Origin: an uncultured Clostridia bacterium
Lineage (GTDB): Bacteria > Bacillota > Clostridia > Christensenellales > Borkfalkiaceae
NCBI GenBank assembly: GCA_944362555.1
Contig: CALVTL010000006.1
Span: 2,318 to 66,317 of the forward strand
Direction: 5' to 3'
Length of the DNA stretch: 64,000 bases
Part shown: positions 5,913 through 58,065 of the stretch, piece by piece
How the letters are laid out: each line of letters starts with the position of its first letter
How positions within the stretch are numbered: the stretch's first letter is position 1
Program-made: the position numbers and the translations under genes
The notes under the pieces: generated by a model
The model's database searches: none
The model's input: the letters and a program-made list of their open reading frames with translations, nothing else
Told to the model about the DNA's origin: nothing

Positions 5913-5937
5913 TTGTATTATGTCAGACATACTATTG
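5913..5937. repeat. Palindromic element copy 1 (exact core TATGTCAGACATA at 5919-5931)
   Basis: Read directly; intergenic, about 45 bp upstream of the -35 of the DUF1848 promoter. Confidence 0.9.
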
Positions 5938-5987
5938 TTTTCACAACGTAAAAATTTTGCGCTGCAATGACAATATCTTGCGTTTGA

Positions 5988-6016
5988 TTGACTTTTCTCC
6001 GCCCTTGCGATACAAT
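5988..6016 (+). promoter_or_regulatory. Orphan promoter-like TTGACT-17-TACAAT with no ORF downstream
   Basis: Read directly; faces a GC-rich hairpin-rich stretch and the antisense side of tRNA-Trp. Confidence 0.4.
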
Positions 6017-6212
6017 ATATAAGACAGCGCGGCTCTATTGTATAGAACAAACCGCCTGCTTGATTGCAGACGGCTTCAATGGGGAGACACGAGCGTAAGG
6101 AGCGGAGCGACGGAACAGCGATCGTGCGCGCAGCGCAGATCGCGTCACGCGCAACCGCGGCGTCAAGCCGCGCAGTTGCGTGGAGAATCGCATTCCGCAC
6201 TTCATTCACAAT

Positions 6213-6251
6213 AAAAAAGTGCTCACATCACGGAAATCGTGATATGAGCGC
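6213..6251 (-). terminator. tRNA-Trp terminator
   Basis: 12-bp stem GCGCTCATATCACG/CGTGATGTGAGC followed by TTTTTT on the minus strand. Confidence 0.75.
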
Positions 6252-6252
6252 T

Positions 6253-6327
6253 TGGCAGGGGAGACGCGATTCGAACACGCAACCTACGGTTTTGGAGACC
6301 GCTACTCTACCGTTGAGCCACTCCCCT
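6253..6327 (-). tRNA. trnW: tRNA-Trp (anticodon CCA)
   Basis: Reverse complement folds as a cloverleaf: acceptor AGGGGAG/CTCCCCT, anticodon loop CTCCAAA, T-arm GTTCGAATC, encoded 3-prime CCA. Confidence 0.9.
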
Positions 6328-6340
6328 GTGAACAACGTGT

Positions 6341-6369
6341 ATTATAACGCATTCTTTGCGTTTCGTCAA
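6341..6369 (-). promoter_or_regulatory. tRNA-Trp promoter TTGACG-17-TATAAT
   Basis: The -10 ends 13 nt upstream of the tRNA 5-prime end. Confidence 0.75.
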
Positions 6370-6408
6370 CGATTTTACCCTTCAATTCGCAAAAAAAGGA
6401 GCATTTCT

Positions 6409-7203
6409 ATGAAAAAGTATACCCTCGGCGTCATCGGCGGCGGTTTCATGGCGCGCGCCATCCTCTCGGGCGCATTCTCAAAGAAAATTTTAAGTCCGAA
6501 GGAGGTGCTCGTCTGCGATCCTTCGACGGAGTGCCGCGCGTATTTTACCTCCGTCGGCGCCGACGTTAGTGAGCAGAACCTGCCCGCCGTTCAAAACTGC
6601 CGCTATCTGTTGTTCGCCGTCAAACCGCAGAACTTTGCCGCAGCCATTGAGGAGCTGCGCGGGCAGCAGTTCCCCGTCGTCATCAGCATCATGGCGGGCA
6701 AGACCATTGCAGGCATCCAGGCGGCGACGGGCGCGGAGAAGATCGCGCGCGTCATGCCCAATCTTCCGTGCAGCATCGGCGCGGGGATGTCCGCCGTCGA
6801 CGCCTCGCGGCTCGGCAATGAGGACAGGAACTTTGTGCTCGGGTTATTCCTTTCGGTGGGCGAGGTCATCGAGACGGCAGAAGAACAGCTCAATGCCGTG
6901 ACGGCGGTCTCGGGCAGCGGTCCCGCCTATATCTATCTCTTCCTGCGCGCGTTCATCAGCGCGGCAATGAAGCAGGGACTACGCGAGGAACAGGCGAGAA
7001 CGCTCGTCTTTCAGACGATGGAGGGGGGGCTTTCCATGGCAAAGACCTCGCCGAAGTCGCTCGACGAACTCATCGCCGCCGTCTCTTCCAAGGGGGGAAC
7101 GACGGTCGCCGCGCTCGAAAGTTTTGCGCGAGACGGATTTGATGCCGCCGTCTCCCGCGCCGTGGCGGCAGCCAGGCAGCGCGCGGAGGAGCTCTCCGAA
7201 TGA
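6409..7203 (+). CDS. proC: Pyrroline-5-carboxylate reductase
   Basis: MKKYTLGVIGGGFMARAI Rossmann N-terminus, SSKGGTT motif near the C-terminus; SD aaggag. The ORF-track extension back to 6064 runs antisense over the tRNA and is rejected. Confidence 0.9.
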   Translation: MKKYTLGVIGGGFMARAILSGAFSKKILSPKEVLVCDPSTECRAYFTSVGADVSEQNLPAVQNCRYLLFAVKPQNFAAAIEELRGQQFPVVISIMAGKTIAGIQAATGAEKIARVMPNLPCSIGAGMSAVDASRLGNEDRNFVLGLFLSVGEVIETAEEQLNAVTAVSGSGPAYIYLFLRAFISAAMKQGLREEQARTLVFQTMEGGLSMAKTSPKSLDELIAAVSSKGGTTVAALESFARDGFDAAVSRAVAAARQRAEELSE

Positions 7204-7640
7204 AGAAGGTGACGCTCTACACGGACGGCGCCTGTTCGGGCAACCCCGGCCCCGGCGGCTGGGGCGTCGTGCTCCTCTACGGCGAGCACAAAAAGGAGCT
7301 CTCAGGCGGGGAGAGGGAGACGACCAACAACCGCATGGAGCTCACCGCCGTCATCGAGGGGCTGCGCGCGCTCAAAATGAAGTGCAGCGTGGATATTTTT
7401 TCCGATTCCGCCTACACGGTCAACGGATTTTTGCAGGGCTGGGTGCAGGGCTGGGAGAGGAGCGACTGGAAGAAAGCCGACCACAAACCCGTTCTCAACG
7501 CCGACCTCTGGCAGGAGCTTGTGCGCCTCGTGCGCGAACACGACGTCCGTTTCCACAAGGTGAAGGGTCACGCCGACAATGAGCTCAACAACCGATGCGA
7601 CGAGCTCGCGCGCGCCGCCATCCGCGCTTTGAGCGACTAA
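7200..7640 (+). CDS. rnhA: Ribonuclease HI
   Basis: LYTDGACSGNPGPGGWG, NNRMEL and KGHADNELNNRCDELA motifs; ATGA overlap with proC. Confidence 0.9.
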   Translation: MKKVTLYTDGACSGNPGPGGWGVVLLYGEHKKELSGGERETTNNRMELTAVIEGLRALKMKCSVDIFSDSAYTVNGFLQGWVQGWERSDWKKADHKPVLNADLWQELVRLVREHDVRFHKVKGHADNELNNRCDELARAAIRALSD

Positions 7641-7695
7641 AACACCGCCCGCAGGGATATAATAAATAGAACGCACACGCTGATCCGGAGATTTT

Positions 7696-8748
7696 ATGGG
7701 GCAGATCGACAAATCAAAAGCCATATTGCATTTTATCCTTCTCGCGCTGACCGCCGCGATCTTTCAGACACTCTTTGTGCTGGCGATCGCCACGCTGCGC
7801 GAAAAATGGAGCGATGCGCTCTATCTCCTTGTTCTTTCGGGCGGAACGGTGCTCAACGCGGTGCTGTTGTCCGTGGACTATATCACCTATCTCTTCCAAA
7901 AGCAGATCGTCTTTCGCTTCTGCATCATCGTCTATATCCTGCTCATCTTTGCAGCCGCCGTCGCCTACGCGCTGCTCGCAACGGGGTTCATCGAAGTCAT
8001 CCGCGACGCGGACAAATTGCAGACGTATCTCGAACGCTCGGGCGGGTGGATGGCTGTCCTCTTTATTTTGCTGCAATTCTCGCAGGTGGTGCTGCTGCCC
8101 ATCCCGAGCACCGTGACGGTCGTGGCGGGAAGCGTGCTGTTCGGCCCCTTCTGGGGAAGCGTTTACAGTCTTTTGGGCATCATGCTCGGCTCTTTGGTGG
8201 CGTTTCTGGTGGGGCGGTATGCGGGATACCGCGTCGTCGCATGGATCGTCGGAAAGAGCACGCTCGATAAGTGGCTAGAAAAGATCAAGGGGAAGGACAA
8301 ATTGTTCCTCTCCGCCATGTTCCTCCTGCCCGTCTTTCCCGACGACGTGCTCTGCTTTGTTGCGGGGCTCTCCTCGATGTCACTGCTCTTTTTTGTGGTC
8401 GTCATCCTCATCTCCCGCATCCTCGCCATCTTCACGACGAGCTACGCCATCACCGCCATCCCGTTCACGACGTGGTGGGGGCTGCTCATCTGGGGTATCT
8501 TCGGCGTCCTCGTCATCCTGCTCTTTCTTCTTCTCTACAAGAAATCGGACGCCATCCTCGCCTGGATCGACCGCATCGTGCACCGCAAGACGGTCGTGGA
8601 GCAGCCCAAAGAACGCGACGAATTCCGCGTTGAGATCGTCGATGCGGACGGTTCTCTGGTAAAAAAGGGCGTCAAAAAAGAGGGTGAAGGACAGGGCGCC
8701 GCCCAAAAGAACGAGGGCGCGGCGCATTCCGGGAAACCGCATTCATAA
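7696..8748 (+). CDS. TVP38/TMEM64 (DedA-related) family membrane protein
   Basis: Multi-TM ORF with VLLPIPSTVTVVAGSVLFGP and FPDDVLCFVAG motifs; charged C-terminal tail. Confidence 0.7.
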   Translation: MGQIDKSKAILHFILLALTAAIFQTLFVLAIATLREKWSDALYLLVLSGGTVLNAVLLSVDYITYLFQKQIVFRFCIIVYILLIFAAAVAYALLATGFIEVIRDADKLQTYLERSGGWMAVLFILLQFSQVVLLPIPSTVTVVAGSVLFGPFWGSVYSLLGIMLGSLVAFLVGRYAGYRVVAWIVGKSTLDKWLEKIKGKDKLFLSAMFLLPVFPDDVLCFVAGLSSMSLLFFVVVILISRILAIFTTSYAITAIPFTTWWGLLIWGIFGVLVILLFLLLYKKSDAILAWIDRIVHRKTVVEQPKERDEFRVEIVDADGSLVKKGVKKEGEGQGAAQKNEGAAHSGKPHS

Positions 8749-8765
8749 ATCATAAGGTCGTACGC

Positions 8766-9980
8766 ATGAAACACGTCATTGTCATCGGCGGGGGCGCGTC
8801 CGGGCTGATGGCGGCCTATGCCGCCGCGGCGAACGGGAAGGAAGTCACCCTGCTCGAACGCAACGAAAAACTCGGAAAAAAGATCTATATCACGGGAAAG
8901 GGGCGGTGCAACCTCACCAACGACTGCGCGCCCGAGGACTTCCTCGCGCACGTCGTGCGCGGCGCAAAATTTCTGACGCGCGCCGCCTATCTCTTTCCGC
9001 CTGCGCGGACGATGGAATTTTTCGAGGAGAACGGGCTCTCCCTCAAAGTGGAACGCGGCAACCGCGTCTTTCCCGTCACCGACCACGCGAGCGACGTCAC
9101 CGCTGCTCTGGAGCGCGCCTGCCGCCGTGCGGGCGCCAAGCTGCACCTCAATGAGCGCGTTCTTGCCGTCGAAGGAGCGGAGGGGGATTTTTGCGTGCGC
9201 ACGGAGAAGGGGGAGTACCGCGCCGGGAGCGTCATCGTTGCGACGGGCGGGCTCTCCTATCCCTCGACGGGCTCGACGGGGGACGGCTACCGCTTTGCCG
9301 CAAAGGCGGGGCATACGCTCGTCGCCACCGTTCCCTCCCTCGTGGGCATGGAGCTTGCGGAGGATGTGAGCGCGGCGCAGGGGATCTCGCTGAAAAACGC
9401 CGTCCTCACGGCACGCAGGGGCGAAAAAATGCTCTTTTCGCAGATGGGCGAGCTGCTCTTCACCCACTACGGCATCAGCGGTCCGCTCGTTCTCACGCTC
9501 TCCGCGCTCATCAACCGCCTGCCACTCTCCGAGATCGGGCTCTCCCTCGACTTCAAGCCCGCTTTGGACGAGAAAAAGCTGGACGAACGCTTGCTGCGCG
9601 ATTTCTCCGAGCGCAAGAACGAACAGATGAAGAACGTCATGCGCGGGCTCCTGCCCGCAGGGCTGTGCGCCGCCGTGCTGCGCGCGGCGAATGTTGCAGG
9701 GGGAAAACAGGCGAACGCCGTCACGCGCGAGGAGCGTGGGCGCATCCTCCATGCCCTCAAACATTTTTCCCTCACGCCCACGGCGCTGCGCGGTTTTTCG
9801 GAGGCAGTCATCACGTCGGGCGGGGTGGAGCTCAAGGAGATCGACCCCAAGACAATGGAGAGCCGCCGCACAAAGGGGCTGTTCTTCTGCGGCGAGGTGC
9901 TCGACTGCGACGCCTTTACGGGAGGGTACAACCTGCAGATCGCGTTCAGCACGGGGTATCTGGCGGGTGAAAACGCATAA
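8766..9980 (+). CDS. HI0933/BaiN-like NAD(P)/FAD-dependent oxidoreductase
   Basis: VIVIGGGASGLMAA dinucleotide fold followed by GKKIYITGKGRCNLTN, diagnostic of the HI0933-like family. Confidence 0.8.
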   Translation: MKHVIVIGGGASGLMAAYAAAANGKEVTLLERNEKLGKKIYITGKGRCNLTNDCAPEDFLAHVVRGAKFLTRAAYLFPPARTMEFFEENGLSLKVERGNRVFPVTDHASDVTAALERACRRAGAKLHLNERVLAVEGAEGDFCVRTEKGEYRAGSVIVATGGLSYPSTGSTGDGYRFAAKAGHTLVATVPSLVGMELAEDVSAAQGISLKNAVLTARRGEKMLFSQMGELLFTHYGISGPLVLTLSALINRLPLSEIGLSLDFKPALDEKKLDERLLRDFSERKNEQMKNVMRGLLPAGLCAAVLRAANVAGGKQANAVTREERGRILHALKHFSLTPTALRGFSEAVITSGGVELKEIDPKTMESRRTKGLFFCGEVLDCDAFTGGYNLQIAFSTGYLAGENA

Positions 9981-9994
9981 ATTGACATTTTGCA

Positions 9995-10019
9995 TTGTAA
10001 TATGTCAGACATAGTATTA
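9995..10019. repeat. Palindromic element copy 2 (exact core at 10001-10013)
   Basis: Read directly; intergenic, between the HI0933-like stop and the aroH-cmk start. Confidence 0.9.
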
Positions 10020-10092
10020 AAAATATCCCTCCGATATTTGACATTTTCCGCAAAATACAATAAGATAATAAGCGATACATAAGGAGTACGTT

Positions 10093-14188: not shown

Positions 14189-14203
14189 AATTTCCGAATT
14201 TAC

Positions 14204-14232
14204 AAAAAATCCGCTTAAACGCGGATTTTTTT
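14204..14232 (+). terminator. ispH-rpsA terminator
   Basis: AAAAAATCCGC-TTAAAC-GCGGATTTTTTT. Confidence 0.85.
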
Positions 14233-14272
14233 GTTTATATATGCTTTGAACATCATCAAGGAGCATACCGTT

Positions 14273-16081: not shown

Positions 16082-16104
16082 CGAAAATATTTTTCAAATG
16101 GGTA

Positions 16105-16429: not shown

Positions 16430-16440
16430 ATGTCGAAAAA

Positions 16441-30214: not shown

Positions 30215-32038
30215 ATGCAATTCTACTATAATCCCTTGGACAAAAACTGCAAGAGCCGCACGGGCGCTTTCCCGCGCGGTGCGCTCGTCACCTTCCGCAT
30301 CTATTGGGCGGAGGGCGGTGAAATGCCGCACGACCTCGATGCACGCTTTGTCTTTTGGGAGGACGGCAAAGAGCGCACGCCGCTCTCGATGGACCGCACG
30401 GAAAACGGCTTTGCCGTTACGCTGCGCTTTCATCAGACGGGGCTCTATTTCTACTATTTCCGCATCGGGGACGCATTTTTCGGCTGCGGGATGCTGCGCG
30501 ACGGCACGTTCATGCCGCAAGCAAATCTCGTGAGCTGGCAGCTCACCGTCTACGAGGAGCATTATTCAACGCCCGACTGGATGAAGGGCGGCGTCATGTA
30601 TCAGATCTTTCCCGACCGCTTCTGCAAAAAGGGCGAACTGCCCATCGGGAACGGGAAGATCCTGCGCGACGATTGGGGCGGCACGCCGTCCTTCCGTCCC
30701 AACGAATACGGCAAGATCCTCAACAACGATTTCTTCGGCGGAAACCTTGCGGGCATCAAGGAAAAGCTCGGCTATCTCAAATCGCTCGGCGTCACGGTGA
30801 TCTATCTCAATCCCGTGTTTGAGGCCTTCTCCAACCACCGCTACGACACGGGCGACTATCTGAAGATCGATCCGCTCCTCGGAACGGAGCAGGACTTCTC
30901 CGGGCTCGTTCAGACGGCGAAGGAAATGGGCATCCGCATCATCCTCGACGCCGTGCTCAATCACACGGGCGCGGACAGCCGCTACTTCAACAAATACGGC
31001 CACTACGACAGCGTGGGCGCCTATCAGTCGCAGCAGTCACCCTATTATGACTGGTACAGCTTTCAGGAGTACCCCGATTTCTATTTGAGCTGGTGGGGCA
31101 TCGACACGCTGCCTGCCGTCAACGAAACGGCGCCCGGATACCAGGAATTCGTATTCGGCAAAGAGGGCGTGCTCAAACACTGGCTTCGCCACGGCATCGG
31201 CGGCTACCGCCTCGACGTCGCCGACGAACTTCCCGACTTCTTCCTGGAAAAACTGCGCAAGACGGTGAAGGACGCCGCATCGGACGCCGTCATCATCGGC
31301 GAGGTCTGGGAGGACGCCTCCAACAAAATCGCTTACAGCGAACGAAGGAAATATCTTCAGGGCAATGAGCTGGACAGCGTGATGAACTATCCCTTGAAGG
31401 ACGCCATCATCAGCTATGTGCAGTCGGGAAACACGTCGCAGCTCCGCGAGACCATCTATATGCTCATGGACAATTACCCGAAAGAGACGCTGGATTGCCT
31501 CATGAACATCCTCGGCACACACGACACGCCGCGCATTTTGACGGTGTTCGGCGGCAAGGAATGCGCCGACAAGGAAGAGATGGCGGTCACCAAGTTGAAG
31601 CCCCGCGAACGGGCGGCTGCAAAAAAGCGCGTTATGATGGCAGCCGTGCTGCAATTCACGCTGCCGGGCGTTCCGTGCATCTACTACGGCGACGAGAACG
31701 CGATGGAGGGTTACCGCGACCCGTTCTGCCGCGGCTGCTTTGATTGGGTGAACACGGACGAGGAACTGCTCGCGTTCTACCAAAAGCTCGGTGCTCTGCG
31801 CGAACGCTACGACGCGTTCCGCGAGGGAGAGTACGACGAGGTGTTTGCCGACAGCAACTGCATCGTCTATATGCGCCGCTCGGAGAAGGAGAACGTTTAT
31901 ATCTGGGTGAACAACTCGAGCGCGGAATATTCGCTGCGCGTGGAGGGCACGTTCTTCGAGCACCTGACCGAAAAGAACTTCTCGGGTCAGCTCGAGATCA
32001 AGCCGAACACCTACGGGATCTTTACAAAAGTACAATAG
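30215..32038 (+). CDS. GH13 alpha-amylase-family enzyme (neopullulanase/alpha-glycosidase type)
   Basis: DAVLNHTG, GYRLDVADE, GEVWED and LGTHD conserved regions I-IV. Confidence 0.8.
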   Translation: MQFYYNPLDKNCKSRTGAFPRGALVTFRIYWAEGGEMPHDLDARFVFWEDGKERTPLSMDRTENGFAVTLRFHQTGLYFYYFRIGDAFFGCGMLRDGTFMPQANLVSWQLTVYEEHYSTPDWMKGGVMYQIFPDRFCKKGELPIGNGKILRDDWGGTPSFRPNEYGKILNNDFFGGNLAGIKEKLGYLKSLGVTVIYLNPVFEAFSNHRYDTGDYLKIDPLLGTEQDFSGLVQTAKEMGIRIILDAVLNHTGADSRYFNKYGHYDSVGAYQSQQSPYYDWYSFQEYPDFYLSWWGIDTLPAVNETAPGYQEFVFGKEGVLKHWLRHGIGGYRLDVADELPDFFLEKLRKTVKDAASDAVIIGEVWEDASNKIAYSERRKYLQGNELDSVMNYPLKDAIISYVQSGNTSQLRETIYMLMDNYPKETLDCLMNILGTHDTPRILTVFGGKECADKEEMAVTKLKPRERAAAKKRVMMAAVLQFTLPGVPCIYYGDENAMEGYRDPFCRGCFDWVNTDEELLAFYQKLGALRERYDAFREGEYDEVFADSNCIVYMRRSEKENVYIWVNNSSAEYSLRVEGTFFEHLTEKNFSGQLEIKPNTYGIFTKVQ

Positions 32039-32056
32039 TATGTCAGACATACTATT
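32034..32056. repeat. Palindromic element copy 3: perfect 11-1-11 palindrome AATAGTATGTCAGACATACTATT
   Basis: Read directly; the left arm contains the last codon and the TAG stop (32036-32038) of the GH13 gene. Confidence 0.9.
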
Positions 32057-32093
32057 CGCGATTTAAGATGCATTTTAAGAAAAAAACCAAGCA

Positions 32094-32120
32094 AAAAGGC
32101 GGCGCAAAGGCCGCTTTTTT
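32094..32120. terminator. Bidirectional terminator after the glg/GH13 operon
   Basis: AAAAAGGCGGC-GCAAA-GGCCGCTTTTTT. Confidence 0.75.
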
Positions 32121-32445
32121 GCTGAAAAACGCTTAAAATTGCGGGAAAAACGATGAGTTGTGCCGTACCGACGCGCAGGAACATTGGAACGCACCGTATG
32201 AAACGATGTGCCGTGCATGGGATTTTACCGCAGAACTACGAACGCAAATCATTTGAAAATGCGGAACGTTGTGCAGAACGTTGTCGGGAGTCGAAAAGAA
32301 TCCGTCTAACGTTCCGGAATCAAAAAAACGTAACGATACAGCGCGGCACGTTACAGAACACAAATTAAAAAACTGTCCTGCAAAACCCTCTTTTTTGCCC
32401 TTACTATTCGTAAAACCTGTGTTTTGCGCATAGTTATTGTGCAAT

Positions 32446-32495: not shown

Positions 32496-32729
32496 TTATT
32501 TTTCGGAATCGTCCCCTTCACCATCATCGGGATAAAGCGAACAATTAGCCGGAAGGTCAACATGATCTTCCTCAGGAAGCGCAAGCGGAACAACGTTCCC
32601 CTGCCTATCATCGTGCTTGCGATCAGCTTTTAGTTTTTTCATAATTCGCCTCGTCGCACAACATGTCAAAACCGTACAAAAAAAGGACAAGACAGAAACA
32701 ACAAGCGAAATGACAACAACAAAATACAT
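32496..32729 (-). CDS. Hypothetical small membrane protein (one N-terminal TM, acidic tail)
   Basis: 77-aa ORF in the AT-rich island; SD-like aggagg 6 nt upstream; terminator hairpin downstream; no recognisable family. Confidence 0.35.
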   Translation of the reverse strand: MYFVVVISLVVSVLSFFCTVLTCCATRRIMKKLKADRKHDDRQGNVVPLALPEEDHVDLPANCSLYPDDGEGDDSEK

Positions 32730-32927: not shown

Positions 32928-32956
32928 TTGACTTTTTCCGTGCAGTGTGTTATGAT
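32928..32956 (+). promoter_or_regulatory. Xer-like recombinase promoter TTGACT-17-TATGAT, 6 nt before the ATG
   Basis: Read directly; no SD; leaderless-type arrangement. Confidence 0.5.
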
Positions 32957-32962
32957 ATTCCC

Positions 32963-34033
32963 ATGGCAAGGATCGCAAAAAACAATTCCGATTACTATCA
33001 GGAACGAAATCTGAAGAACCTCGACAAGATCGAGGCGCTGCTCGAAGAACTTCCCCCTTTCTGCGAGGATTTTCTGCGCGGCATCGAGACGCGCACCAGC
33101 ACGCTCACCCGCCTCAATTACGTCTATGACCTGCGCATTTTCTTTGATTTTCTCGTCAGAAAGCGCTGCCGCGGCAAGGAAGTCCGCGCACTCACCCTTG
33201 AAGATCTGGAACAGGTCACCGATACCGACATCGAGATCTTTTTGAGCTATCTCACCAACTACACGTTCGGCGGAAAGCGTCTCTCCTGCGATGAGCGCGC
33301 CAAGGCGCGCAAGCTCTCCTCCGTGCGCTCCATGTTCAAATATTTCTTCAATAAGGGGCTCATCGAGAGCAATCAGACGACCAAAGTCCCCTCTCCCAAA
33401 CTGCACGAAAAGGAGATCATTCGCCTCGAAGGCGGCGAAGTCTCCTCCCTTCTCGATACGGCGGAATATGGCGACGGGCTCTCGGCACACGCGAGCGGCT
33501 ATCATGAAAAGACCAAGATCCGCGACAGCGCCATTCTCACCCTCTTTCTGGGAACGGGCATCCGTATCTCCGAACTGGTCGGGCTGAACAACGAGAGCAT
33601 CGATTTTACCAACAATTCCTTCGTCGTCACGCGCAAGGGCGGGAACAAAGCCATCCTCTATTTTTCGGAGGAAGTCGGCGACGCGCTTGCCGCCTACCTC
33701 GCGCAGAAGGAGAACGACCCGCGCATCCCGCCCGAGGAACACGCCCTCTTTCTCTCGCTGCAATACCGCCGTATTTCCGTGCGTGCGGTGGAAAATCTCG
33801 TCAAAAAGTACGCGAAGATCGTCTCCCCTCTCAAAAAGATCACGCCGCACAAGCTGCGTTCCACCTACGGCACGGCGCTCTACCGCGAGACGGGCGACAT
33901 CTATATCGTCGCCGATGTGCTCGGGCACCGCGACGTCAACACGACGCGCAAGCACTACGCCGCCATCACCGAAGATCACCGCCGCTCCGTGGCGTCTGCC
34001 GTAAAACTCCATCCCACGGAGGATGACGAATGA
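32963..34033 (+). CDS. Tyrosine recombinase, XerC/XerD-like
   Basis: C-terminal HKLRSTYGT..LGHRDVNTTRKHY catalytic motifs (R..HxxR..Y); start chosen at MARIAK. Confidence 0.8.
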   Translation: MARIAKNNSDYYQERNLKNLDKIEALLEELPPFCEDFLRGIETRTSTLTRLNYVYDLRIFFDFLVRKRCRGKEVRALTLEDLEQVTDTDIEIFLSYLTNYTFGGKRLSCDERAKARKLSSVRSMFKYFFNKGLIESNQTTKVPSPKLHEKEIIRLEGGEVSSLLDTAEYGDGLSAHASGYHEKTKIRDSAILTLFLGTGIRISELVGLNNESIDFTNNSFVVTRKGGNKAILYFSEEVGDALAAYLAQKENDPRIPPEEHALFLSLQYRRISVRAVENLVKKYAKIVSPLKKITPHKLRSTYGTALYRETGDIYIVADVLGHRDVNTTRKHYAAITEDHRRSVASAVKLHPTEDDE

Positions 34034-35244
34034 GCGAGAACGTCTTTATCGTCCAGCCCGTGCACGACGACAGCGCACAGGCGTTGCAGGCGGAGGCGGT
34101 CGCGCTCATCGAGAGCGCGGGGGCGTCCTATGCGGGAACAATGTCGGCGAAGATCCGAGAAGTCAACCCCGCGACCTATCTCGGCGAAGGGAAGATCGCG
34201 GAACTGCGCGACATTTTAGAGGGACTTGACGTCACGGTGCTCTTCAACGGAGAACTCTCCCCCTCCCAAACCGTCAACCTCTCCGAGGCGTTGGGCGGGA
34301 AAAAGGTCATCGACCGCACGACGCTCATCCTCGACATCTTCGCCCTGCGCGCCGAGAGCAGCGAGGGCAAATTGCAGGTGGAACTCGCCCAGCTGCGCTA
34401 TCTCTATCCCCGCCTGAAAGGCAAGGGCGAGGCGCTCTCCCGTCTCGGGGGTGGCATCGGAACGCGCGGACCGGGGGAAACGCAGCTCGAGACGGATCGC
34501 CGTCATATCCGCGCCCGCATCCGCTCGCTTGAAGAAAAGCTGGAAAAGACGGAGCAGCGCCGCGGGATGCAGGCAAAGCGCAGAAAAAAAGACGGCGTGC
34601 GCACGGTGGCGCTCGTCGGCTATACGAATACGGGAAAATCCACGCTGCTGAACGCACTCACGGGCGCGGACGTCTTTGTAAAGGACGCGCTCTTTGCGAC
34701 GCTCGACCCCACCTCCCGCCGCGTGGAGATCGAGGGAATGGACTTCCTCCTCACCGATACGGTGGGATTTTTGCGCGATCTGCCCCATCATCTCATCGAG
34801 GCGTTCAAATCCACGCTGGAAAGCGCCCTCAACTGCGATCTCGCGCTCATCGTCTGCGATGCAAGCGGCGACTACGAAATGCAGCTCTCCACCACGCTCG
34901 AAACGCTGCGCGGGATGGACTTTTCCGCGCCCACCCTCATCGTCATGAACAAGTGCGACCGCGCCCCCGCCGACGCGCGTTTCCCGAAGGACGCCGTCTG
35001 CATCTCGGCAAAGACGGACTGCGGGCTGCCAGAGTTAAAAAGGAGCATCTTTACGGCGCTCAAAGAGCGTTTCATCTTTGCGGAGCTGTTCATCCCCTAC
35101 CCGCTCTCTGCCGAATACGCGGCGCTCCGCCCGCTCATCACCGAACGCGCCGTCGAATACACGCAGCAAGGCGCCGCCGTATCTGCCGTCATCCCCGCAG
35201 AACACGCCGCCAAGTTCCGCCGCTTTCTCTCCCCCGAAGTGTAA
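34030..35244 (+). CDS. hflX: GTPase HflX
   Basis: GGGIGTRGPGETQLE, GYTNTGKSTL, DTVGF and NKCD motifs. Confidence 0.9.
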   Translation: MSENVFIVQPVHDDSAQALQAEAVALIESAGASYAGTMSAKIREVNPATYLGEGKIAELRDILEGLDVTVLFNGELSPSQTVNLSEALGGKKVIDRTTLILDIFALRAESSEGKLQVELAQLRYLYPRLKGKGEALSRLGGGIGTRGPGETQLETDRRHIRARIRSLEEKLEKTEQRRGMQAKRRKKDGVRTVALVGYTNTGKSTLLNALTGADVFVKDALFATLDPTSRRVEIEGMDFLLTDTVGFLRDLPHHLIEAFKSTLESALNCDLALIVCDASGDYEMQLSTTLETLRGMDFSAPTLIVMNKCDRAPADARFPKDAVCISAKTDCGLPELKRSIFTALKERFIFAELFIPYPLSAEYAALRPLITERAVEYTQQGAAVSAVIPAEHAAKFRRFLSPEV

Positions 35245-37769: not shown

Positions 37770-37834
37770 GCCGTAAGTATAGCCCTTTTCCGCAAAAAAA
37801 GCAAGGATTTTTTGAAAATATTTCCGAAAATTTT

Positions 37835-37849
37835 AGAACAAATGTTTGC
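37835..37849. promoter_or_regulatory. LexA (SOS) box AGAACAAATGTTTGC
   Basis: Matches the Firmicutes GAAC-N4-GTTC/T consensus; overlaps the -35 of the lexA promoter. Confidence 0.75.
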
Positions 37850-37874
37850 AATTTCCGAAGAAATGTGCTATAAT
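37846..37874 (+). promoter_or_regulatory. lexA promoter TTGCAA-17-TATAAT (TGn extended -10)
   Basis: Hexamers read directly, 22 nt upstream of the lexA ATG. Confidence 0.7.
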
Positions 37875-37895
37875 GGACATAGTAAGGAGACCGCT

Positions 37896-38492
37896 ATGCT
37901 CAACAAATCGAAATTGGATACCGTGTTCGAGTTCATCACCAACTATACCGACGAAAACGGGTTCCCGCCCACCGTGCGCGAGATCTGCTCGGAGCTGCAC
38001 ATCAAATCGACGGCGACCGCGTACGACTATATCAACCGCCTGAAGGAGATGGGACGGCTGCAGAAGACGGCGGGAAAGAAGCGCGCCGTCGCAGTCGCCA
38101 ACACCAACTCCGTGCGCGTTCCGCTCATCGGTACCGTCACGGCAGGTACCCCCATCCTCGCCGCCGAAAATTACGAGGGATATTACACCCTCCCCACGGC
38201 GGAATTTCAGGGCGACGATCTGTTCCTGCTCACCGTCAAGGGCGACAGTATGATCGAGGCGGGCATCTTCAACGGCGATAAGATCGTCGTCAAAAAGCAG
38301 GAAACTGCCGAGAACGGCGACATCGTGGTCGCCATGTTCGACGACGGCATCGAGGAAGGCGCCACCGTCAAGCGCTTTTTCCGCCGCGACGGCAAATTCA
38401 TCCTCCATCCCGAGAACAGCGCCCTTTCCGACTATGTGCTGGATACCGTCACCATCCTCGGCAAGGTCATCGGGCTGCTGCGCTCCTTCTGA
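37896..38492 (+). CDS. lexA: LexA repressor
   Basis: Winged-helix N-terminus, cleavage region VAAG..GTP, S24 motifs GDSM and VVKR; SD aaggag. Confidence 0.9.
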   Translation: MLNKSKLDTVFEFITNYTDENGFPPTVREICSELHIKSTATAYDYINRLKEMGRLQKTAGKKRAVAVANTNSVRVPLIGTVTAGTPILAAENYEGYYTLPTAEFQGDDLFLLTVKGDSMIEAGIFNGDKIVVKKQETAENGDIVVAMFDDGIEEGATVKRFFRRDGKFILHPENSALSDYVLDTVTILGKVIGLLRSF

Positions 38493-44868: not shown

Positions 44869-44898
44869 ATTATAGCACAACCTTGCGGGCGCGGTCAA
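44869..44898 (-). promoter_or_regulatory. lysA promoter TTGACC-18-TATAAT, 6 nt before the ATG
   Basis: Read directly; no SD; leaderless-type arrangement. Confidence 0.55.
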
Positions 44899-44927: not shown

Positions 44928-44955
44928 ATATACTATGTCTGTCATATTACTATGC
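44928..44955. repeat. Palindromic element copy 4 (core TATGTCTGTCATA, 1 mismatch)
   Basis: Read directly; intergenic between the dac stop and the lysA promoter; shares flank CATATTACTATGC with copy 5. Confidence 0.8.
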
Positions 44956-44966
44956 TAATTGGCAAT

Positions 44967-49074: not shown

Positions 49075-49075
49075 A

Positions 49076-49531: not shown

Positions 49532-49543
49532 ATTTTTCCTCGT

Positions 49544-50344: not shown

Positions 50345-50406
50345 TTTGCCCGCGTTGAGGGCGCGGCGCTCCCGCTCCCGGGCGCGCCGAAATACAATAT
50401 GGTTAT

Positions 50407-50435
50407 ATTATACAATAACGCCTGCATATATGCAA
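50407..50435 (-). promoter_or_regulatory. nadK-argR-recN promoter TTGCAT-17-TATAAT, with the -35 inside the tlyA terminator hairpin
   Basis: Read directly. Confidence 0.55.
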
Positions 50436-50452
50436 GCGTTTTCGCAAAATTT

Positions 50453-51220: not shown

Positions 51221-52928
51221 GGCATTCCATGATATAGGCAAGGATGGATTCAAAATCCAGCCCGAAGTCGCGCGCAAGCTCCTGCGCCTGCCCGTGCGGG
51301 ATGAACGCGTCGCGGTAGCCGAACGAACGAAGGACGCGCTCCTGTGCAAGCCCCGCCTCCCGCAGAACGCGCGCAACGGCGTCGCCCAGCCCGCCCGCAA
51401 GCACGTTGTCCTCCAGCGTGATGAGGTATTTTTCATTGCGGGACAAGATCATCTCCCGATCGACGGGTTTTACAAAGCGCGCGTTGACAACGGAGCAGCA
51501 AACGCCCCGCTCCGACGCCGCCGCATACAGCCGCTCGGCAAGACGGAGGCAGCGTTCCCCTGCCGCATAGATTATTATTTCAGACATATTACTATGCAAA
51601 AGCTCAAATTTCAACATTTCAAAGTCGCCGAGCTCCCCTTCCTCCCCCTCACGCGGGTAACGGATAGCGAGCGGCCCCGAAAAATTCACGCTCGCGCGGA
51701 GCATGGCGCGGAACTCTGCTATATTTTTCGGCACCGCTATGACGAGATTGGGAATGGGTGAGAGATAGGATAGGTCGAACACGCCCTGATGGGTCTCCCC
51801 GTCCGCACCCGTCACGCCCGCGCGGTCGATGCAGAAGGTCACGGGCAATTTCTGCCCGCAGATGTCGTGTATGATCTCATCGTAGGCGCGCTGCAAAAAG
51901 GTGGAGTAGATGGCATAGTAAGGGCGCATCCCCTCCGTCGCCAGCGCCGCGCACAGCACGCAGGCGTGCTCTTCGCAGATGCCGACGTCAAACGCGCGTC
52001 CGGGAAATTCGCGGAAGAAGGGACGCAGCCCCAAGGCGTCCGTCATGGCGGCAGTCACCGCGACAACGCGTCCGTCGCGCCTTGCGAGCGCCGTCAGCTC
52101 CTCACCGAGCGCCGTGGAATATTCCGCGCCCGATTTCCCGAGGGAGATGCCGTGCGTGCGCTCGGGCTCCCGCTCGCAGAACGCAAAGCCCTGTCCCTTG
52201 CGCGTCGAAACGTGCAGCAGTACGCTCCCCGACGCAAGCGCTTTTTTGGCGCTTTGCAGGGCGGGCAGCAGCTCCTCCAGATCGTTCCCGTTGTACACGC
52301 CCATGTAGGTGAGCCCGTACCGCTCGAACAGCGCGACGTCCTCGATGGGCGCGTCCCCCTCCTTCATCTCGCTCAACAGTTCGTGCGTGCCGCCCACCGT
52401 GGGCGAAATGGACATCCCGTTATCGTTCAGAATGATGAGAACGCGGGTATTGAGGATCTTCAGGCTGTTGAGCGCCTCATAGATGAGCCCGTTATGAAAG
52501 GAGCCGTCGCCGACGAGCGCAATGACGTTGAAGGCGGCGTTTTTTAAGTCGCGCGCCTTGGCGATGCCGAGCGCCGCGGAGACGGCAGTTCCCGCGTGCC
52601 CCGTCTCATAACAGTCGTATTCGCTCTCCCCGCGCTTGGGAAATCCCGAAAGCCCGCCGCGGCTGCGCAGCGTGGAGAACGCCGCAGCCCGTCCGGAGAG
52701 CAGTTTGTGCGTATAGCATTGATGCCCGACGTCGAACACGATCTTGTCCGTCGGAAAATCAAAGACGCGATGCAGCGCCACGGTGAGCTCCACCACGCCG
52801 AGGTTGGACGCGAGATGCCCGCCGCGCACCGAGACCGTATCGACGATCTCCTCGCGCAACGTCTCGCATATCTCCCGCAATCGGGGAAGGGACGCCTCCT
52901 TCAGCTCCCCGCTCGAAATATTTTTCAT
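51207..52928 (-). CDS. dxs: 1-deoxy-D-xylulose-5-phosphate synthase
   Basis: GGHLASNLG, GHAGT, GDG..NG.. and IRYPR motifs; start at MKNISS. Confidence 0.9.
   Translation of the reverse strand: MKNISSGELKEASLPRLREICETLREEIVDTVSVRGGHLASNLGVVELTVALHRVFDFPTDKIVFDVGHQCYTHKLLSGRAAAFSTLRSRGGLSGFPKRGESEYDCYETGHAGTAVSAALGIAKARDLKNAAFNVIALVGDGSFHNGLIYEALNSLKILNTRVLIILNDNGMSISPTVGGTHELLSEMKEGDAPIEDVALFERYGLTYMGVYNGNDLEELLPALQSAKKALASGSVLLHVSTRKGQGFAFCEREPERTHGISLGKSGAEYSTALGEELTALARRDGRVVAVTAAMTDALGLRPFFREFPGRAFDVGICEEHACVLCAALATEGMRPYYAIYSTFLQRAYDEIIHDICGQKLPVTFCIDRAGVTGADGETHQGVFDLSYLSPIPNLVIAVPKNIAEFRAMLRASVNFSGPLAIRYPREGEEGELGDFEMLKFELLHSNMSEIIIYAAGERCLRLAERLYAAASERGVCCSVVNARFVKPVDREMILSRNEKYLITLEDNVLAGGLGDAVARVLREAGLAQERVLRSFGYRDAFIPHGQAQELARDFGLDFESILAYIMECHARG
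51570..51597. repeat. Palindromic element copy 5 (core TATTTCAGACATA, 1 mismatch), inside dxs
   Basis: Read directly; encodes ..HSNMSEIIIY.. of Dxs within an AT-rich patch of about 60 nt. Confidence 0.8.
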
Positions 52929-52941
52929 CCGATCGCCCCCT

Positions 52942-54656: not shown

Positions 54657-55057
54657 TTGTTGATGACCCCTCCCAATACGCCGTTGACGAAGTCCGCCGA
54701 GCGCTCCGTCGAATATTTGCGCGCAAGCGCCGTCGCCTCCGAGACGGAGACGACGGGCGGCACGTCGTCGAGATAGCTTATCTCCGTGAGCGCCAGAAGC
54801 AGCACGGCGCGGTCGGCGGGATAGATGCGGTAATCGGCGTAGCGCGTCACCGCAGAAGAGAGCTGCGCCGAAAGTTCTTCCTTATGCGTGCGGAAGTTTT
54901 GGAAGATGCGCTCGGCAAAGGCACACTCCTCCTCGTTTAATCCCGCCTGTTTGTAGAGCGCGGCGCGGAAATTCTTCTCCCCGTCGCCGCCGAACAGGTC
55001 GGCAAAGATGGCTTTGAACGCAGCCTCGCGTGCATCGTTTCTCATAAATTTCCTCAT
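54653..55057 (-). CDS. nusB: Transcription antitermination factor NusB
   Basis: REAAFKAIF N-terminus and FVNGVLG C-terminal motif. Confidence 0.85.
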   Translation of the reverse strand: MRKFMRNDAREAAFKAIFADLFGGDGEKNFRAALYKQAGLNEEECAFAERIFQNFRTHKEELSAQLSSAVTRYADYRIYPADRAVLLLALTEISYLDDVPPVVSVSEATALARKYSTERSADFVNGVLGGVINK

Positions 55058-55123
55058 GCAAGCGTTCCCTCCCGCAAGCGAGAGGGAACGCCGCTCTTTG
55101 TATTCGCGTAAAAATTGCCCTTT

Positions 55124-55504
55124 TCAGGCGTTTGCCGTCTCCGCTGCCCCTTCCTGCTGCGCGGCGGGCGCCGCCTCTGTCTTGGGCGCGGGGAAGATGA
55201 CGCTCGTAACGTGAACGTCCACTTTGGCGATCTTATAGCTCGTCATGGACTCCACCATCTGCTTGATGGTCTGCTGGATGCGGAAGGCGAGCTCGGGCAC
55301 CTTATAGCCGTAGTGCGCGACGACGGAGATGTCCACAAAGACGCCCTCCTTTTCAAAGCACACTTTGATGCCCTTGTTCTTGGACGGGACCAGCTCGATG
55401 CCCTCCGTCTCTTTGAGGCTGAGCACGATGATGCCGCTCACAATGTCCGAGTTGTAGGTGACTTTCCCCTTCTGACCGTTTGGATTATACTTGATACTTG
55501 CCAT
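55124..55504 (-). CDS. Asp23/Gls24-family envelope stress protein
   Basis: VVSGIIVLSLKE..V.VDVHV pattern; conserved position next to nusB. Confidence 0.8.
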   Translation of the reverse strand: MASIKYNPNGQKGKVTYNSDIVSGIIVLSLKETEGIELVPSKNKGIKVCFEKEGVFVDISVVAHYGYKVPELAFRIQQTIKQMVESMTSYKIAKVDVHVTSVIFPAPKTEAAPAAQQEGAAETANA

Positions 55505-55563
55505 AACCGTCTCCTTTCTGAAACCATTATAGCACATCTTTTTGCGAATTACCACTATTTTTT

Positions 55564-56043
55564 TCAACTTTCCGCATAAACAGGCATAATAATAATGTTT
55601 CCGTCGCGGATATTGTGCTCCACTTCGAGCGCATAGAAGATTTTCGTCACCATTTCGCTCGTCAGTTCATCGGAATTGACAAAGACATTGATGTTCTCCG
55701 AGTCCCCGATGGCGACCGCCGCATCGGAAAATCCCATCGATTTGATGATGGATTCCATCACGAGCTCATCCTCCATCATCTCGACGAGCTCCTGCTTGCG
55801 CTCCACCGCGGCGGAGTATTCGTCCGTCCCCTCCTCGTAGGCGGAGATCACGCTGTCGAGCTGAACGAACTCCTCGCTGCGCGTCGAGTTGCGGTCGGCG
55901 CGGTACGTCGTGAAGTAGTTGGCTTCCACAACGGCGCCCGCGTCCTGCGTGCGCGTCCCCGCGAGCACAAAGTTGCACACCGCCGTCACGGCGAGCAGCA
56001 GCACGAGCGTGGACATGAGCGCGATCTTCTTCGTATTGGACAT
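55564..56043 (-). CDS. spoIIIAH: Stage III sporulation protein AH
   Basis: N-terminal TM, FFTTYR..R region, GFSDAAVAI motif; last gene of the spoIIIA operon. Confidence 0.7.
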   Translation of the reverse strand: MSNTKKIALMSTLVLLLAVTAVCNFVLAGTRTQDAGAVVEANYFTTYRADRNSTRSEEFVQLDSVISAYEEGTDEYSAAVERKQELVEMMEDELVMESIIKSMGFSDAAVAIGDSENINVFVNSDELTSEMVTKIFYALEVEHNIRDGNIIIMPVYAES

Positions 56044-56069
56044 AGTTCTATCTCCTTCTCAATATGATT

Positions 56070-56432
56070 TCACAATTCCCGCGAAGGGCACACGAGCACC
56101 CTGTTTTCGGCGATCCCCAGCGCCTGCGCCGCGATCTGTGTCAGGCGCAACCGGACGAGGATGCCGTCCGTCCCGTCAAAGAGCACCACGGCGCTCACCG
56201 CCTCTCCCTCCGATTCGGTGACGAGCACGCGCACGTCGCCCGCGTCCTCCACAGCCGATAACAGGGCGGAAAGGCGCTGCTCCCGCTCGGTGAGGACGGC
56301 GTCTCCGGAGGCAGATCTCTCCTCCCCGCGCCCGAACACCAGCCAACACGCGAGCAGCAGCAACAGCGCGGCAGCGGCGACGATGAGGATGCGCGCCGTG
56401 CGGTTTGCCCAGATTTCGCCCAACTTTTTCAT
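56070..56432 (-). CDS. spoIIIAG: Stage III sporulation protein AG
   Basis: TM followed by LEQRL-like SALLSAVEDAGDVRVLV motif; operon position. Confidence 0.7.
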   Translation of the reverse strand: MKKLGEIWANRTARILIVAAAALLLLLACWLVFGRGEERSASGDAVLTEREQRLSALLSAVEDAGDVRVLVTESEGEAVSAVVLFDGTDGILVRLRLTQIAAQALGIAENRVLVCPSREL

Positions 56433-56884
56433 GAGACCTCCGCCGCGCAGCCGTAGCACTCCTCGAGCGCGCTTTCGATCTGCTCTGTCATATATATATG
56501 CTCGTCCTGCCCGATTATTCCGAAATCTAGGATCTCGACGTAAATTTTTTCATAAGCAAACCCCGCTTCCGCCCGCCGCACGACCTGCGCACGCGCCGTC
56601 ACGCCGTATTCCTCCTGCAAAAACACGCAGAGCGCCGCCTCATCCTCGGCGGAGAGCGTCTCGGCGCAATAGGCGAGGTACCCCTCGTCGTAGGCAATCG
56701 ACCCCGCGCCGAGCATCTCCCCCTCCCCCCGAAAGAGCGCCGTGAGCGGCGCCGCCATCACGACAAGGATGACGAGGTTGACCGCCCCGCGCAGGAACTT
56801 CCCCATCCTGCCGCCCGGCGCGATGACGGTGATGACCGCGGAGAGCAGCACGGCGCCCGCGATGGAGAGAATGTACGCCTTCAT
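56429..56884 (-). CDS. spoIIIAF: Stage III sporulation protein AF
   Basis: MKAYILSIAGAVLLSAVITVIAPGG two-TM N-terminus; TAATG overlap with spoIIIAE. Confidence 0.7.
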   Translation of the reverse strand: MKAYILSIAGAVLLSAVITVIAPGGRMGKFLRGAVNLVILVVMAAPLTALFRGEGEMLGAGSIAYDEGYLAYCAETLSAEDEAALCVFLQEEYGVTARAQVVRRAEAGFAYEKIYVEILDFGIIGQDEHIYMTEQIESALEECYGCAAEVS

Positions 56885-58065
56885 TAAAATAATACCCCCG
56901 TGGAACAGACGAGCAGCACGATGGTGAGGAAATAGAGAAAGGCAATGGTGAGAAGCCCCGCAAGGAAAAATCCGCTGTCCGACGCGAGGCGGGACAAAAA
57001 TGCGGAAATTTTGCCGCCCGCGGGCTCTGTGACGGCGGCAGAGAGCCGCAAAAAGAGCTGAAACGCGGCAAAGAGCAGTACAAGGCGAAAGACGGAGGCG
57101 AACAGGAGAAAGACGGCAAACGACCCGACGGCATTTTTGATGAGCGCGCTGCCCGCGAGCACCAGATCCATGCCGCCCGACAAAAACCCGCCGACGATGG
57201 GCACGGAGCCCGAGACGAGGTATTTGACGGCGCGCAGCGACATCCCGTCGTACTGCGCGGAGGAGATGCCCTGCACGGTGAGAAAGAGGGAAAACAGCCC
57301 GAGCGTAAGCCCCAAAAGCCACTTGGAGACGCTCTTGAAGAGGTCGCCGAGGCGCTCCGTGCGCACATCAGGCGAGAGATTCCCGAGAAAGGCGAGCACG
57401 ATGACGACGACGGACACAGGCAGCACGACGGCGGAAAAGAGCTCGCAAAGCCCGCTAGAGAGGAAGGCGACGGCGGGACGGAACACACCCGCGGAGACGG
57501 AACCCCCGCTCGCCGCCATCAGCGTGAGGAGCAAGGGATAGACCACCTCCATCTGCCGCTGCATTGCCTGCATGGCGGAAAAGCCCTCCTGCAAAAGCCC
57601 CGTCAGCACCGAAAGCACGACGGCGCCGACGGAAAGATAGGCGATAAAGTTTATTATGTCAGACATAGTACTCTGCATAAATCCGTTTTTTGCAGAGTTG
57701 AGGATGCCGCACAGCAGCGCAGCCGCCATAATGACGGCAAATGCGGGCAGCATCGTGCGCCCCTCCTCAAAGACGAGGGAGAACGCCCCCTCCCACAAAT
57801 TGCTATAATCGAGCGCAAAATCGCCCGTCAGCAAACTTGAGAGCGTCTTTTTGAGGTCGGTTTCGGGAAAATCGGAGAGCGACGCGAGATATTCCTCCAA
57901 TTCCTGTGTGTCAAGCGTGCCGAGGAGTTCCTCGATTTGTTCCTGAAACTCCTCGAGCGCCTCCTCCTCTTCGGGGGTGTAAGCGCGTGCCTCCCCCGCT
58001 TTGCCTCCCGAAAAAAACGGCGCGGCAAGAAGTAATATCAGAAGCAATATCATGAGGGCAGCCAT
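56884..58065 (-). CDS. spoIIIAE: Stage III sporulation protein AE
   Basis: Polytopic membrane protein; start at MAALMILLL preceded by SD ggaagggg (alternative ATG at 58092). Confidence 0.85.
   Translation of the reverse strand: MAALMILLLILLLAAPFFSGGKAGEARAYTPEEEEALEEFQEQIEELLGTLDTQELEEYLASLSDFPETDLKKTLSSLLTGDFALDYSNLWEGAFSLVFEEGRTMLPAFAVIMAAALLCGILNSAKNGFMQSTMSDIINFIAYLSVGAVVLSVLTGLLQEGFSAMQAMQRQMEVVYPLLLTLMAASGGSVSAGVFRPAVAFLSSGLCELFSAVVLPVSVVVIVLAFLGNLSPDVRTERLGDLFKSVSKWLLGLTLGLFSLFLTVQGISSAQYDGMSLRAVKYLVSGSVPIVGGFLSGGMDLVLAGSALIKNAVGSFAVFLLFASVFRLVLLFAAFQLFLRLSAAVTEPAGGKISAFLSRLASDSGFFLAGLLTIAFLYFLTIVLLVCSTGVLF
57649..57673. repeat. Palindromic element copy 6 (exact core at 57655-57667), inside spoIIIAE
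   Basis: Read directly; encodes ..QSTMSDIINF.. of SpoIIIAE. Confidence 0.9.

Follow-up and report, generated by a model that had tools for sequence, protein, structure and literature searches.

What reads a 13-bp palindrome that recurs along a bacterial chromosome, in spacers and inside conserved genes alike? We addressed this question for TATGTCAGACATA, an element present six times in a 64,000-nucleotide stretch of DNA (hereafter the window) from an uncultured Clostridia bacterium of the Borkfalkiaceae (contig CALVTL010000006.1, positions 2,318 to 66,317). After comparing its copies within the window and across related genomes, we consider that the palindrome is probably the operator of a membrane-anchored PadR-like regulator whose regulon has expanded in the lineage of the window. 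The strongest lead to this most likely binder comes from sequence comparison: an enrichment of the palindrome upstream of PadR-like genes, an extension that the sites share, and phased distances to promoters.

The palindrome in the window and among relatives

A scan of the window recovered exact copies starting at 5919, 10001, 32039 and 57655, and single-mismatch copies at 44934 (TATGTCTGTCATA, which reads TATGACAGACATA on the minus strand) and 51576 (TATTTCAGACATA), the same six positions that an earlier sequence-only reading of this DNA had given. Allowing up to two mismatches, no further site was found in the 64 kb. The 12 strand-matches observed compare with a mean of 0.24 in 100 dinucleotide-preserving shuffles, none of which reached 12, and the G+C content of the window is ~59%. 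The half-motif TAnTATGTC is essentially absent on its own, with a single half-site near 37876 in the window; a DNA-uptake-sequence-like half-motif was rejected because the half-site lacks standalone occurrence. The sequence-only reading had also seen partly asymmetric similarity outside the core and counted four intergenic copies and two within open reading frames (ORFs), and both observations hold. Five of the six units have an asymmetric flank in common, while site 3 is instead a symmetric 23-bp palindrome, AATAGTATGTCAGACATACTATT, without the TTTTGCATAG flank. Pfam annotation places site 1 between a DUF1848 gene and a proC-holding region, site 2 between an HI0933-like gene and aroH-cmk, and site 4 between a dacB-like gene and lysA; site 3 is immediately adjacent to the stop codon of a GH13 gene, and sites 5 and 6 lie inside dxs (~residue 470) and spoIIIAE (~residue 175).

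We then scanned TANTATGTCWGACATANTA against 185,579 species-representative genomes, which gave at least 120 loci. Among these listed matches, nearly all come from uncultured gut Clostridia, including rabbit and chicken metagenome-assembled genomes, Ca. Gallimonas (placed by NCBI in Clostridia incertae sedis), Ca. Scatosoma and Christensenellaceae-labelled bins. Loci from other genomes or metagenomes that carry the motif or a PadR-like gene are labelled below with L-numbers (L005, L040 and so on). Across 139 sites, the conserved unit is a 19-bp palindrome, TAnTATGTCnGACATAnTA, with the core TAnTATGTC(A/T)GACATAnTA. A one-sided TTTTGCATAG extension (at least 7 of 10 positions), preceded by an A/T-rich block, is found at 67 of the 139. 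Wherever TTGCATAG is followed by TA, the palindrome almost always comes next, including in copies outside the search seeds, and A/T tracts recur every 10-11 bp (roughly a 10.5-bp phase) on both sides of the element. In relatives, palindromes also form tandem arrays, mostly 18 bp from centre to centre, which precede sigK, the dgt-dnaG-rpoD operon and the GH13 / XerS-like-hflX region.

Oriented units are found 11-130 nt ahead of the start codons of thrS, folA, carA, purB, glmM, metK, sbcD and rsfS and likewise upstream of aroH-cmk, lysA and a small membrane-protein gene, among others. They are not simply promoters of those genes. Many begin 8-24 nt past the stop codon of the upstream gene, some are found just ahead of a terminator or between convergent genes, and 32 of 90 gene ends are within 25 nt of a site. 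Intergenic sites are co-directional in 53 cases, convergent in 14 and divergent in 4. Of 43 oriented intergenic units, 38 have the orientation of the gene upstream, a statistic confounded by the 83% same-strand gene bias of these loci.

The two intragenic copies show that the DNA itself is under selection. The sequence-only reading had proposed looking for copies at orthologous positions in relatives, and such copies exist: the dxs unit occupies identical codons in 7 species, with a third-position identity of 0.91 inside the unit versus 0.56 in its flanks, and the spoIIIAE unit does so in 5 species (0.87 versus 0.55). The encoded peptides across species are ..LHS[TN]MSDI[IV].. in Dxs and ..[QH]S[TS]MSDII.. 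in SpoIIIAE. In Dxs, the motif threads the start of domain III at the GxDVxI strand, and alignment of the window protein to solved DXS structures revealed no insertion at the motif. The missing insertion, the kept codons and the third-position identity together indicate that the DNA was selected in place and argue against a mobile insertion; the copies inside dxs and spoIIIAE thus evolved in place under DNA-level selection.

How the sequence varies bears on whether DNA or RNA is recognised. Variants concentrate at the palindrome centre (TATGYC.GRCATA). Variants compatible with G-U pairing number 9 on the sense strand versus 10 on the antisense strand, which is no bias, and there is no covariation between the two n positions (C/T at the left one versus A/G at the right one). 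No Rfam family was detected at the sites. Given these three results, recognition of double-stranded DNA by a two-fold symmetric protein is the most economical reading.

A PadR-like membrane-anchored family and its promoters

PadR-domain genes recur among the genes flanking the sites, and the exact 19-mer lies immediately upstream of PadR-like genes in L043, L063, L037 and L015, whose N-terminal PadR domains are very similar. An alignment of this domain retrieved 80 metagenomic loci, 74 with enough upstream sequence. Of these 74, 40 have the palindrome (at most two mismatches) no more than 400 nt ahead of the conserved domain. Its density there is 1.77 per kb, 22.6 times that in the remainder of these loci (0.078 per kb). 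Taken with the exact 19-mer, this enrichment is a signature of autoregulation.

The family is Clostridia-wide, conserved and uncharacterised. Its members, 450-1150 residues long, combine an N-terminal PadR winged helix (Pfam E ~1e-18), a low-complexity or coiled-coil linker of 250-900 residues and, in every complete member, about four predicted transmembrane helices within the last ~130 residues; no curated family spans the full-length protein. The gene and an acyl-ACP (acyl carrier protein) thioesterase gene are divergently arranged in 25 of 31 loci. Literature searches returned no description of the PadR-like family, of the PadR-thioesterase pairing or of the motif, which the sequence-only reading had likewise failed to recognise as published.

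The flank of the palindrome recurs at the promoters of PadR-like genes, where it reads nTACTWTGCAAA and in most cases lies on the side that faces the promoter; a perfect TTGACA-N17-TATAAT comes next. Distances from the palindrome centre to the -10 element fall at 52-56, 65-67 and 74-76 bp, and one subclade has the divergent thioesterase promoter in a symmetric position, at 53-54 bp. Some subclades have two tandem palindromes between the promoter and the ribosome-binding site of the PadR-like gene, and one subclade without the 13-mer has the half-site at a wider spacing, TATTATGAAA-N9-TTTCATAATA. Two side observations concern the same loci: nearly all regulator genes in L132-L193 have a promoter matching TTGACA-N17-TATAAT at 12 of 12 positions, which is unusual for a regulator gene, and in L194-L210 a Xer-like gene directly precedes the PadR-like gene.

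These data suggest how the system may work. The 13-mer would be the centre of a 19-bp operator, with TAYTATG as half-site, to which about half of the copies would add a third half-site-like extension on one side, and a dimeric winged-helix protein would bind this operator as double-stranded DNA. The PadR-like protein would control its own gene and the acyl-ACP thioesterase gene from a site fixed on one helix face upstream of sigA promoters (about 54, 65 or 75 bp from centre to -10 element) or, in some lineages, from a site between the promoter and the ribosome-binding site. In the lineage of the window, the operator would have spread to dozens of loci, for example aroH-cmk, lysA, DUF1848, thrS, folA, glmM, the dgt-dnaG-rpoD operon, sigK, dxs and spoIIIAE, where it may tune adjacent sigA promoters from an upstream position or serve, within operons, as a roadblock or a point of internal control. 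The motif, its conservation, the selection on it as DNA within genes and its link to the PadR-like gene are observed; binding by this protein and the sign of regulation are inferred, and the signal would possibly be the state of the membrane or its lipids.

Known regulators offer partial parallels. The candidate shares the Pfam PadR winged helix with Bacillus subtilis PadR, Lactococcus lactis LmrR and Vibrio AphA, and its proposed site is a palindrome with ATGT...ACAT located in the regulator's own promoter region, which suggests autoregulation. It differs from these proteins in its 250-900 residue linker, its roughly four transmembrane helices and an apparently large regulon that includes intragenic sites. 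ToxR, CadC and BcrR are membrane-anchored one-component regulators that, as the candidate would, tether a cytoplasmic DNA-binding domain through C-terminal transmembrane segments and join DNA binding and envelope sensing in one polypeptide. They have an OmpR-like or XRE fold rather than PadR, and the candidate has a far longer linker, four helices and many more predicted sites.

Weighing a probable PadR operator against other explanations

Several observations weigh against a PadR operator. The promoter phasing that speaks for it in the motif-rich clade, where a single phase covers 7 of the 11 oriented units having a downstream promoter (54, 65, 65, 66, 86, 96 and 107 bp), is a statistic built on few independent points with a phase window picked after viewing. 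The flank is promoter-proximal at the regulator's own gene and mostly promoter-distal elsewhere. No PadR-like gene is present within the 64-kb window, and 34 of the 74 family loci lack a site at up to two mismatches. Site placement is atypical of a classical regulator: convergent regions outnumber divergent ones, many sites lie 0-25 nt past a stop codon, and some are located after the T-box terminator and before the thrS ribosome-binding site, others just ahead of a terminator. Published PadR operators have the form ATGT-N8-ACAT, whereas the ATGT and ACAT half-sites are here 3 bp apart (about 15 bp in one subclade). Finally, a near-identical palindrome is recognised by a GntR/FCD protein, and a Faecousia locus encodes such a protein beside two copies.

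The last point defines an alternative that we consider unlikely, namely that the site serves as operator for a regulator of the GntR family (FadR/FCD-VanR type) which became global in this clade. The footprinted operator of AlkR, a GntR/FCD protein of the VanR group in Pseudomonas aeruginosa, is ATTGTCAGACAAT (PMC12042122). This site of a dimeric winged-helix repressor overlaps a promoter, and it shares with our element the 6-1-6 arrangement of the palindrome and, base for base, the inner 9 bp, TGTCAGACA; a GT-N3-AC centre of the GTCnGAC type is also present in our palindrome. The outer positions are AT/AT in AlkR versus TA/TA here, and the AlkR regulon is local, whereas the present one appears global. 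In the Faecousia locus (L076), the operon encodes a transaldolase-like protein and the 241-aa GntR/FCD protein; there (4958-7100, minus strand), one palindrome lies ~90 bp upstream of a perfect sigA promoter, TTGACA-N17-TATAAT, and the other just downstream of it. Yet the 927 kb of motif-bearing loci hold only two GntR genes, this one and a YtrA-like gene 5.5 kb from a site, and no site of the motif-rich clade has a GntR gene nearby. At PadR-like genes, but not at GntR genes, both the conserved outer half-site TAYTATG and the TTTTGCATAG flank are found again. Among the hypotheses of the sequence-only reading, that of an operator of a global GntR/HutC-like regulator therefore came closest: the global winged-helix regulator stands, and the comparative evidence moves its identity to the PadR family. 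CodY, which has only a central TCWGA in common with the motif, was rejected, and no codY, spoIIID, spo0A or abrB signature was found in the motif-bearing loci.

Chromosome-membrane tethering is conceivable in view of the membrane anchor and of the unusual positions of many sites, past stop codons, inside operons or between convergent genes. Noc links DNA to the membrane, and in a tentative version of the PadR reading, to which we give a small but real chance, the PadR head, long tether and four helices would hold dozens of loci at the membrane in a Noc-like manner, with the protein doubling as a global regulator. This would couple envelope or lipid state to envelope-precursor loci (the acyl-ACP thioesterase gene, dxs, glmM, lysA and cmk). 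A site serving chromosome anchoring or organisation rather than gene regulation, in the manner of Noc and its binding sites (NBS) or of MatP-matS and perhaps through the same membrane-anchored protein, seems to us rather improbable, slightly more so than the GntR operator. Like NBS, matS and parS sites, which are high-information palindromes of 13-16 bp present in tens of copies, tolerated in ORFs and kept across genera, the element is a high-information palindrome tolerated within ORFs; the six sites in 64 kb, the change of GC-skew sign in the window, phased A/T tracts suggestive of DNA wrapping, and a candidate binder with about four transmembrane helices and a very long linker would all suit such a role. 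The sequence-only reading had listed it as one of its hypotheses. The fixed helical phasing to sigA promoters and the location in the binder's own divergent promoter region look regulatory and disfavour it, and the candidate belongs to a protein family unrelated to Noc, MatP or ParB.

The directional unit, TTTTGCATAG plus palindrome, could also be an alternative-sigma promoter, for example a sporulation promoter internal to operons, which we regard as very unlikely. In a sample excluding the window, 20 of 20 oriented intragenic copies point along the host gene, and intergenic oriented copies sit 11-130 nt ahead of start codons. GCATA and CATAnTA resemble sigE/sigG elements, and TTGAAA-N17-TAATAT overlaps the unit at dxs. 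A genuine sigE-type promoter (GCATA/GTATA-N17-CATACGATA) precedes pro-sigK in Ca. Scatosoma (L035 7660-7900 and L062 7340-7600, both minus strand), where four tandem palindromes lie 70-150 bp upstream of it. In the unit, however, GCATA and CATA are 13 bp apart rather than the 17 bp of this promoter, and the spacing misfits the sigE, sigK, sigG and sigF consensus alike. For sigA, the hexamers stand at unsuitable spacings, namely 10, 14, 19 and 22 bp (TTGCAT to CATAAT is 14 bp, and TTGnCA has no -10 element at 16-18 bp), no -35 element is conserved at the right distance, and canonical sigA promoters are found downstream of window units 1, 2 and 4; GG-N10-GC, the mark of sig54, is absent. Units that lie ahead of terminators, between convergent genes or downstream of a T-box terminator are poorly placed as promoters, and strict two-fold symmetry would be left unexplained. 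Two further promoter types were rejected: a MerR-type promoter with a 19-bp spacer, as a ribosome-binding site directly follows the palindrome at thrS, folA, purB and glmM, and an antisense promoter with CTGACA as -35 element, which has a poor consensus -10 element and is plausible in L012 only. A LexA box was rejected as well. Three lexA genes lie near sites, yet lexA of L092 (3198-3803) carries a canonical Cheo-type AGAACGTTTGTTTG box that overlaps an extended -10 promoter (TGnTATAAT); the motif in that locus points away or follows the hflX stop codon, and recA in L063 directly follows cinA, with its promoter off the locus. Between hflX and lexA, L092 also has a small Cys-rich ORF on the reverse strand.

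An RNA element, such as a hairpin in a 3' untranslated region (UTR) or between cistrons that serves processing, stability or protein binding, has still less to recommend it. Unit orientation follows that of the upstream gene, gene ends are often near a site and some sites lie within 3' UTRs or leaders, but the orientation statistic suffers from the strand bias given above. The lack of wobble asymmetry and of covariation, arrays located beyond terminators and a one-base centre that cannot make an RNA loop all speak against it. Palindrome-only copies in L005 (916), L038 (6753) and L052 (4144) lie within longer site-specific inverted repeats flanked by A- and T-tracts; these extend into longer hairpins followed by T-tracts, which favours the RNA explanation at those places, and resemble bidirectional intrinsic terminators built on the motif. 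The thrS leader contains a confirmed T-box (59.6 bits, E 1.8e-12, under the Rfam gathering score; L010 2718-2980, also in L013 and L022). It is separate from the unit, the order being T-box, terminator, full motif unit and, directly after it, the ribosome-binding site.

A mobile repeat of the repetitive extragenic palindromic (REP) or miniature inverted-repeat transposable element (MITE) type, or a core site of the neighbouring XerS-like tyrosine recombinase, is the least likely explanation that we weighed. Enterobacterial REP sequences and bacterial interspersed mosaic elements are, like ours, short palindromes with a conserved 5' tail, often located after stop codons and clustered. A Phage_integrase-family gene is the commonest neighbour (9 of 85), and the Xer-like gene ahead of the PadR-like gene in L194-L210 fits the recombinase version. 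The element differs from REP sequences in being intragenic without insertion, in keeping orthologous positions across genera and in being recognised as sequence rather than structure. A phage origin was rejected, as 2.9 million viral contigs gave only 11 matches. The sequence-only reading's proposal of a tyrosine-recombinase core, or more precisely a dif/XerS site, fails on the dozens of syntenic copies at kept positions, which are incompatible with an active recombination site. The copy nearest the recombinase, site 3, belongs to the 3' UTR of the GH13 gene and lies 893 nt from the XerS-like gene; between them come what reads by eye as a terminator-like hairpin, then a small ORF on the reverse strand and the recombinase's own promoter.

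The six units, their surroundings and what they mean

Unit 1 (TTTTGAATTG-TAT-TATGTCAGACATA-CTA; 5906-5934, core 5919-5931, plus strand) lies between two divergent consensus-like sigA promoters. The promoter of the DUF1848 gene, on the minus strand at 5846-5874, is a perfect TTGACA-N17-TATAAT (12 of 12 matches); its -10 element starts 74 bp from the unit centre and the flank faces it. This geometry equals that at the PadR-like genes of the subclade L143-L153. The DUF1848 ORF start at 5904 is an overcall, with the Pfam domain beginning at residue 31. On the other side, a promoter-like TTGACT-N17-TACAAT (5988-6016, plus strand) has its -10 element starting 86 bp from the centre. Unit 2 (TTTTGCATTG-TAA-TATGTCAGACATA-GTA; 9988-10016, plus strand) begins ~8 nt past the HI0933-like stop codon and lies upstream of the promoter-like TTGACA-N17-TAAGAT of aroH-cmk (10038-10066, plus strand). 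The distance from its centre to the -10 start is 54 bp, versus 65 bp for the orthologous unit upstream of aroH-cmk in L040, one helical turn apart.

Unit 3 (AATAGTATGTCAGACATACTATT, 32034-32056) is symmetric and contains the GH13 stop codon TAG (32036-32038), a context that recurs in L028, L031 and L067. A hairpin with a T-tract, read by eye as a putative intrinsic terminator, follows at 32093-32125 on the plus strand, so that unit 3 falls within the GH13 3' UTR rather than the promoter of the Xer-like gene. Unit 4 (ATTAGCATAG-TAA-TATGACAGACATA-GTA; 44931-44959, core 44934-44946, minus strand) begins immediately past the dacB-like stop codon, and its centre is 66 bp from the -10 start of the lysA promoter, an extended -10 promoter with TTGACC-N18-TATAAT preceded by TG (44869-44898, minus strand). 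The two intragenic units are also on the minus strand. Unit 5 (TTTTGCATAG-TAA-TATGTCTGAAATA-ATA; 51573-51601, core 51576-51588) encodes ..LHSNMSEIII.. where Dxs domain III begins and has tlyA-nadK-argR-recN ~340 nt downstream, and unit 6 (TTATGCAGAG-TAC-TATGTCTGACATA-ATA; 57652-57680, core 57655-57667) encodes ..QSTMSDII.. in spoIIIAE.

Several features surround these units. Downstream of unit 1, a tRNA-Trp gene (6253-6327) with its promoter TTGACG-N17-TATAAT (6341-6369) and terminator (6221-6249), all on the minus strand, lies inside a long ORF taken for proC (6064-7203); as Pfam P5CR matches only from residue 121 on, the real proC start is near 6424. Past the GH13 terminator, the AT-rich gap that precedes the XerS-like gene holds a 77-aa hydrophobic ORF (32496-32729, minus strand) with a terminator-like hairpin. 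The tyrosine recombinase (32945-34033, plus strand) has XerS as its best match (NF003462, 197 bits, below the family cutoff) and is paired with hflX (34030-35244, plus strand), a pair kept in L075, L092, L030 and L067; lexA follows at 37812-38492 on the plus strand. The cumulative GC skew peaks near 21 kb (maximum at 20-22 kb), and genes flip from mostly plus to mostly minus strand near 35.3 kb, with the orientation of the motif flank flipping along with gene strand. The skew peak, the strand flip and the nearby XerS-like gene, lexA and scpA/scpB suggest that the window may span the replication terminus. Among relatives, the small membrane protein mentioned above (111-118 aa, ..VYTVKGKQVVVR...LTPDSVGK, no Pfam match) is encoded in L046 (4257-4592), L048 (2182-2538) and L102 (7079-7417), always with a motif unit 23-44 nt upstream of its gene.

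Altogether, the copies in dxs and spoIIIAE reveal strong DNA-level selection for a regulatory site within two conserved genes. If the palindrome is indeed the operator of the PadR-like protein, a widespread Clostridia protein family of no described function would gain a DNA motif, a core target in the divergent acyl-ACP thioesterase gene and a testable regulon. This would provide an entry point to gene regulation in abundant uncultured Clostridia of the animal gut. Through its membrane anchor, the regulator would link envelope state to gene control, and possibly to chromosome positioning, in a manner that is directly testable.

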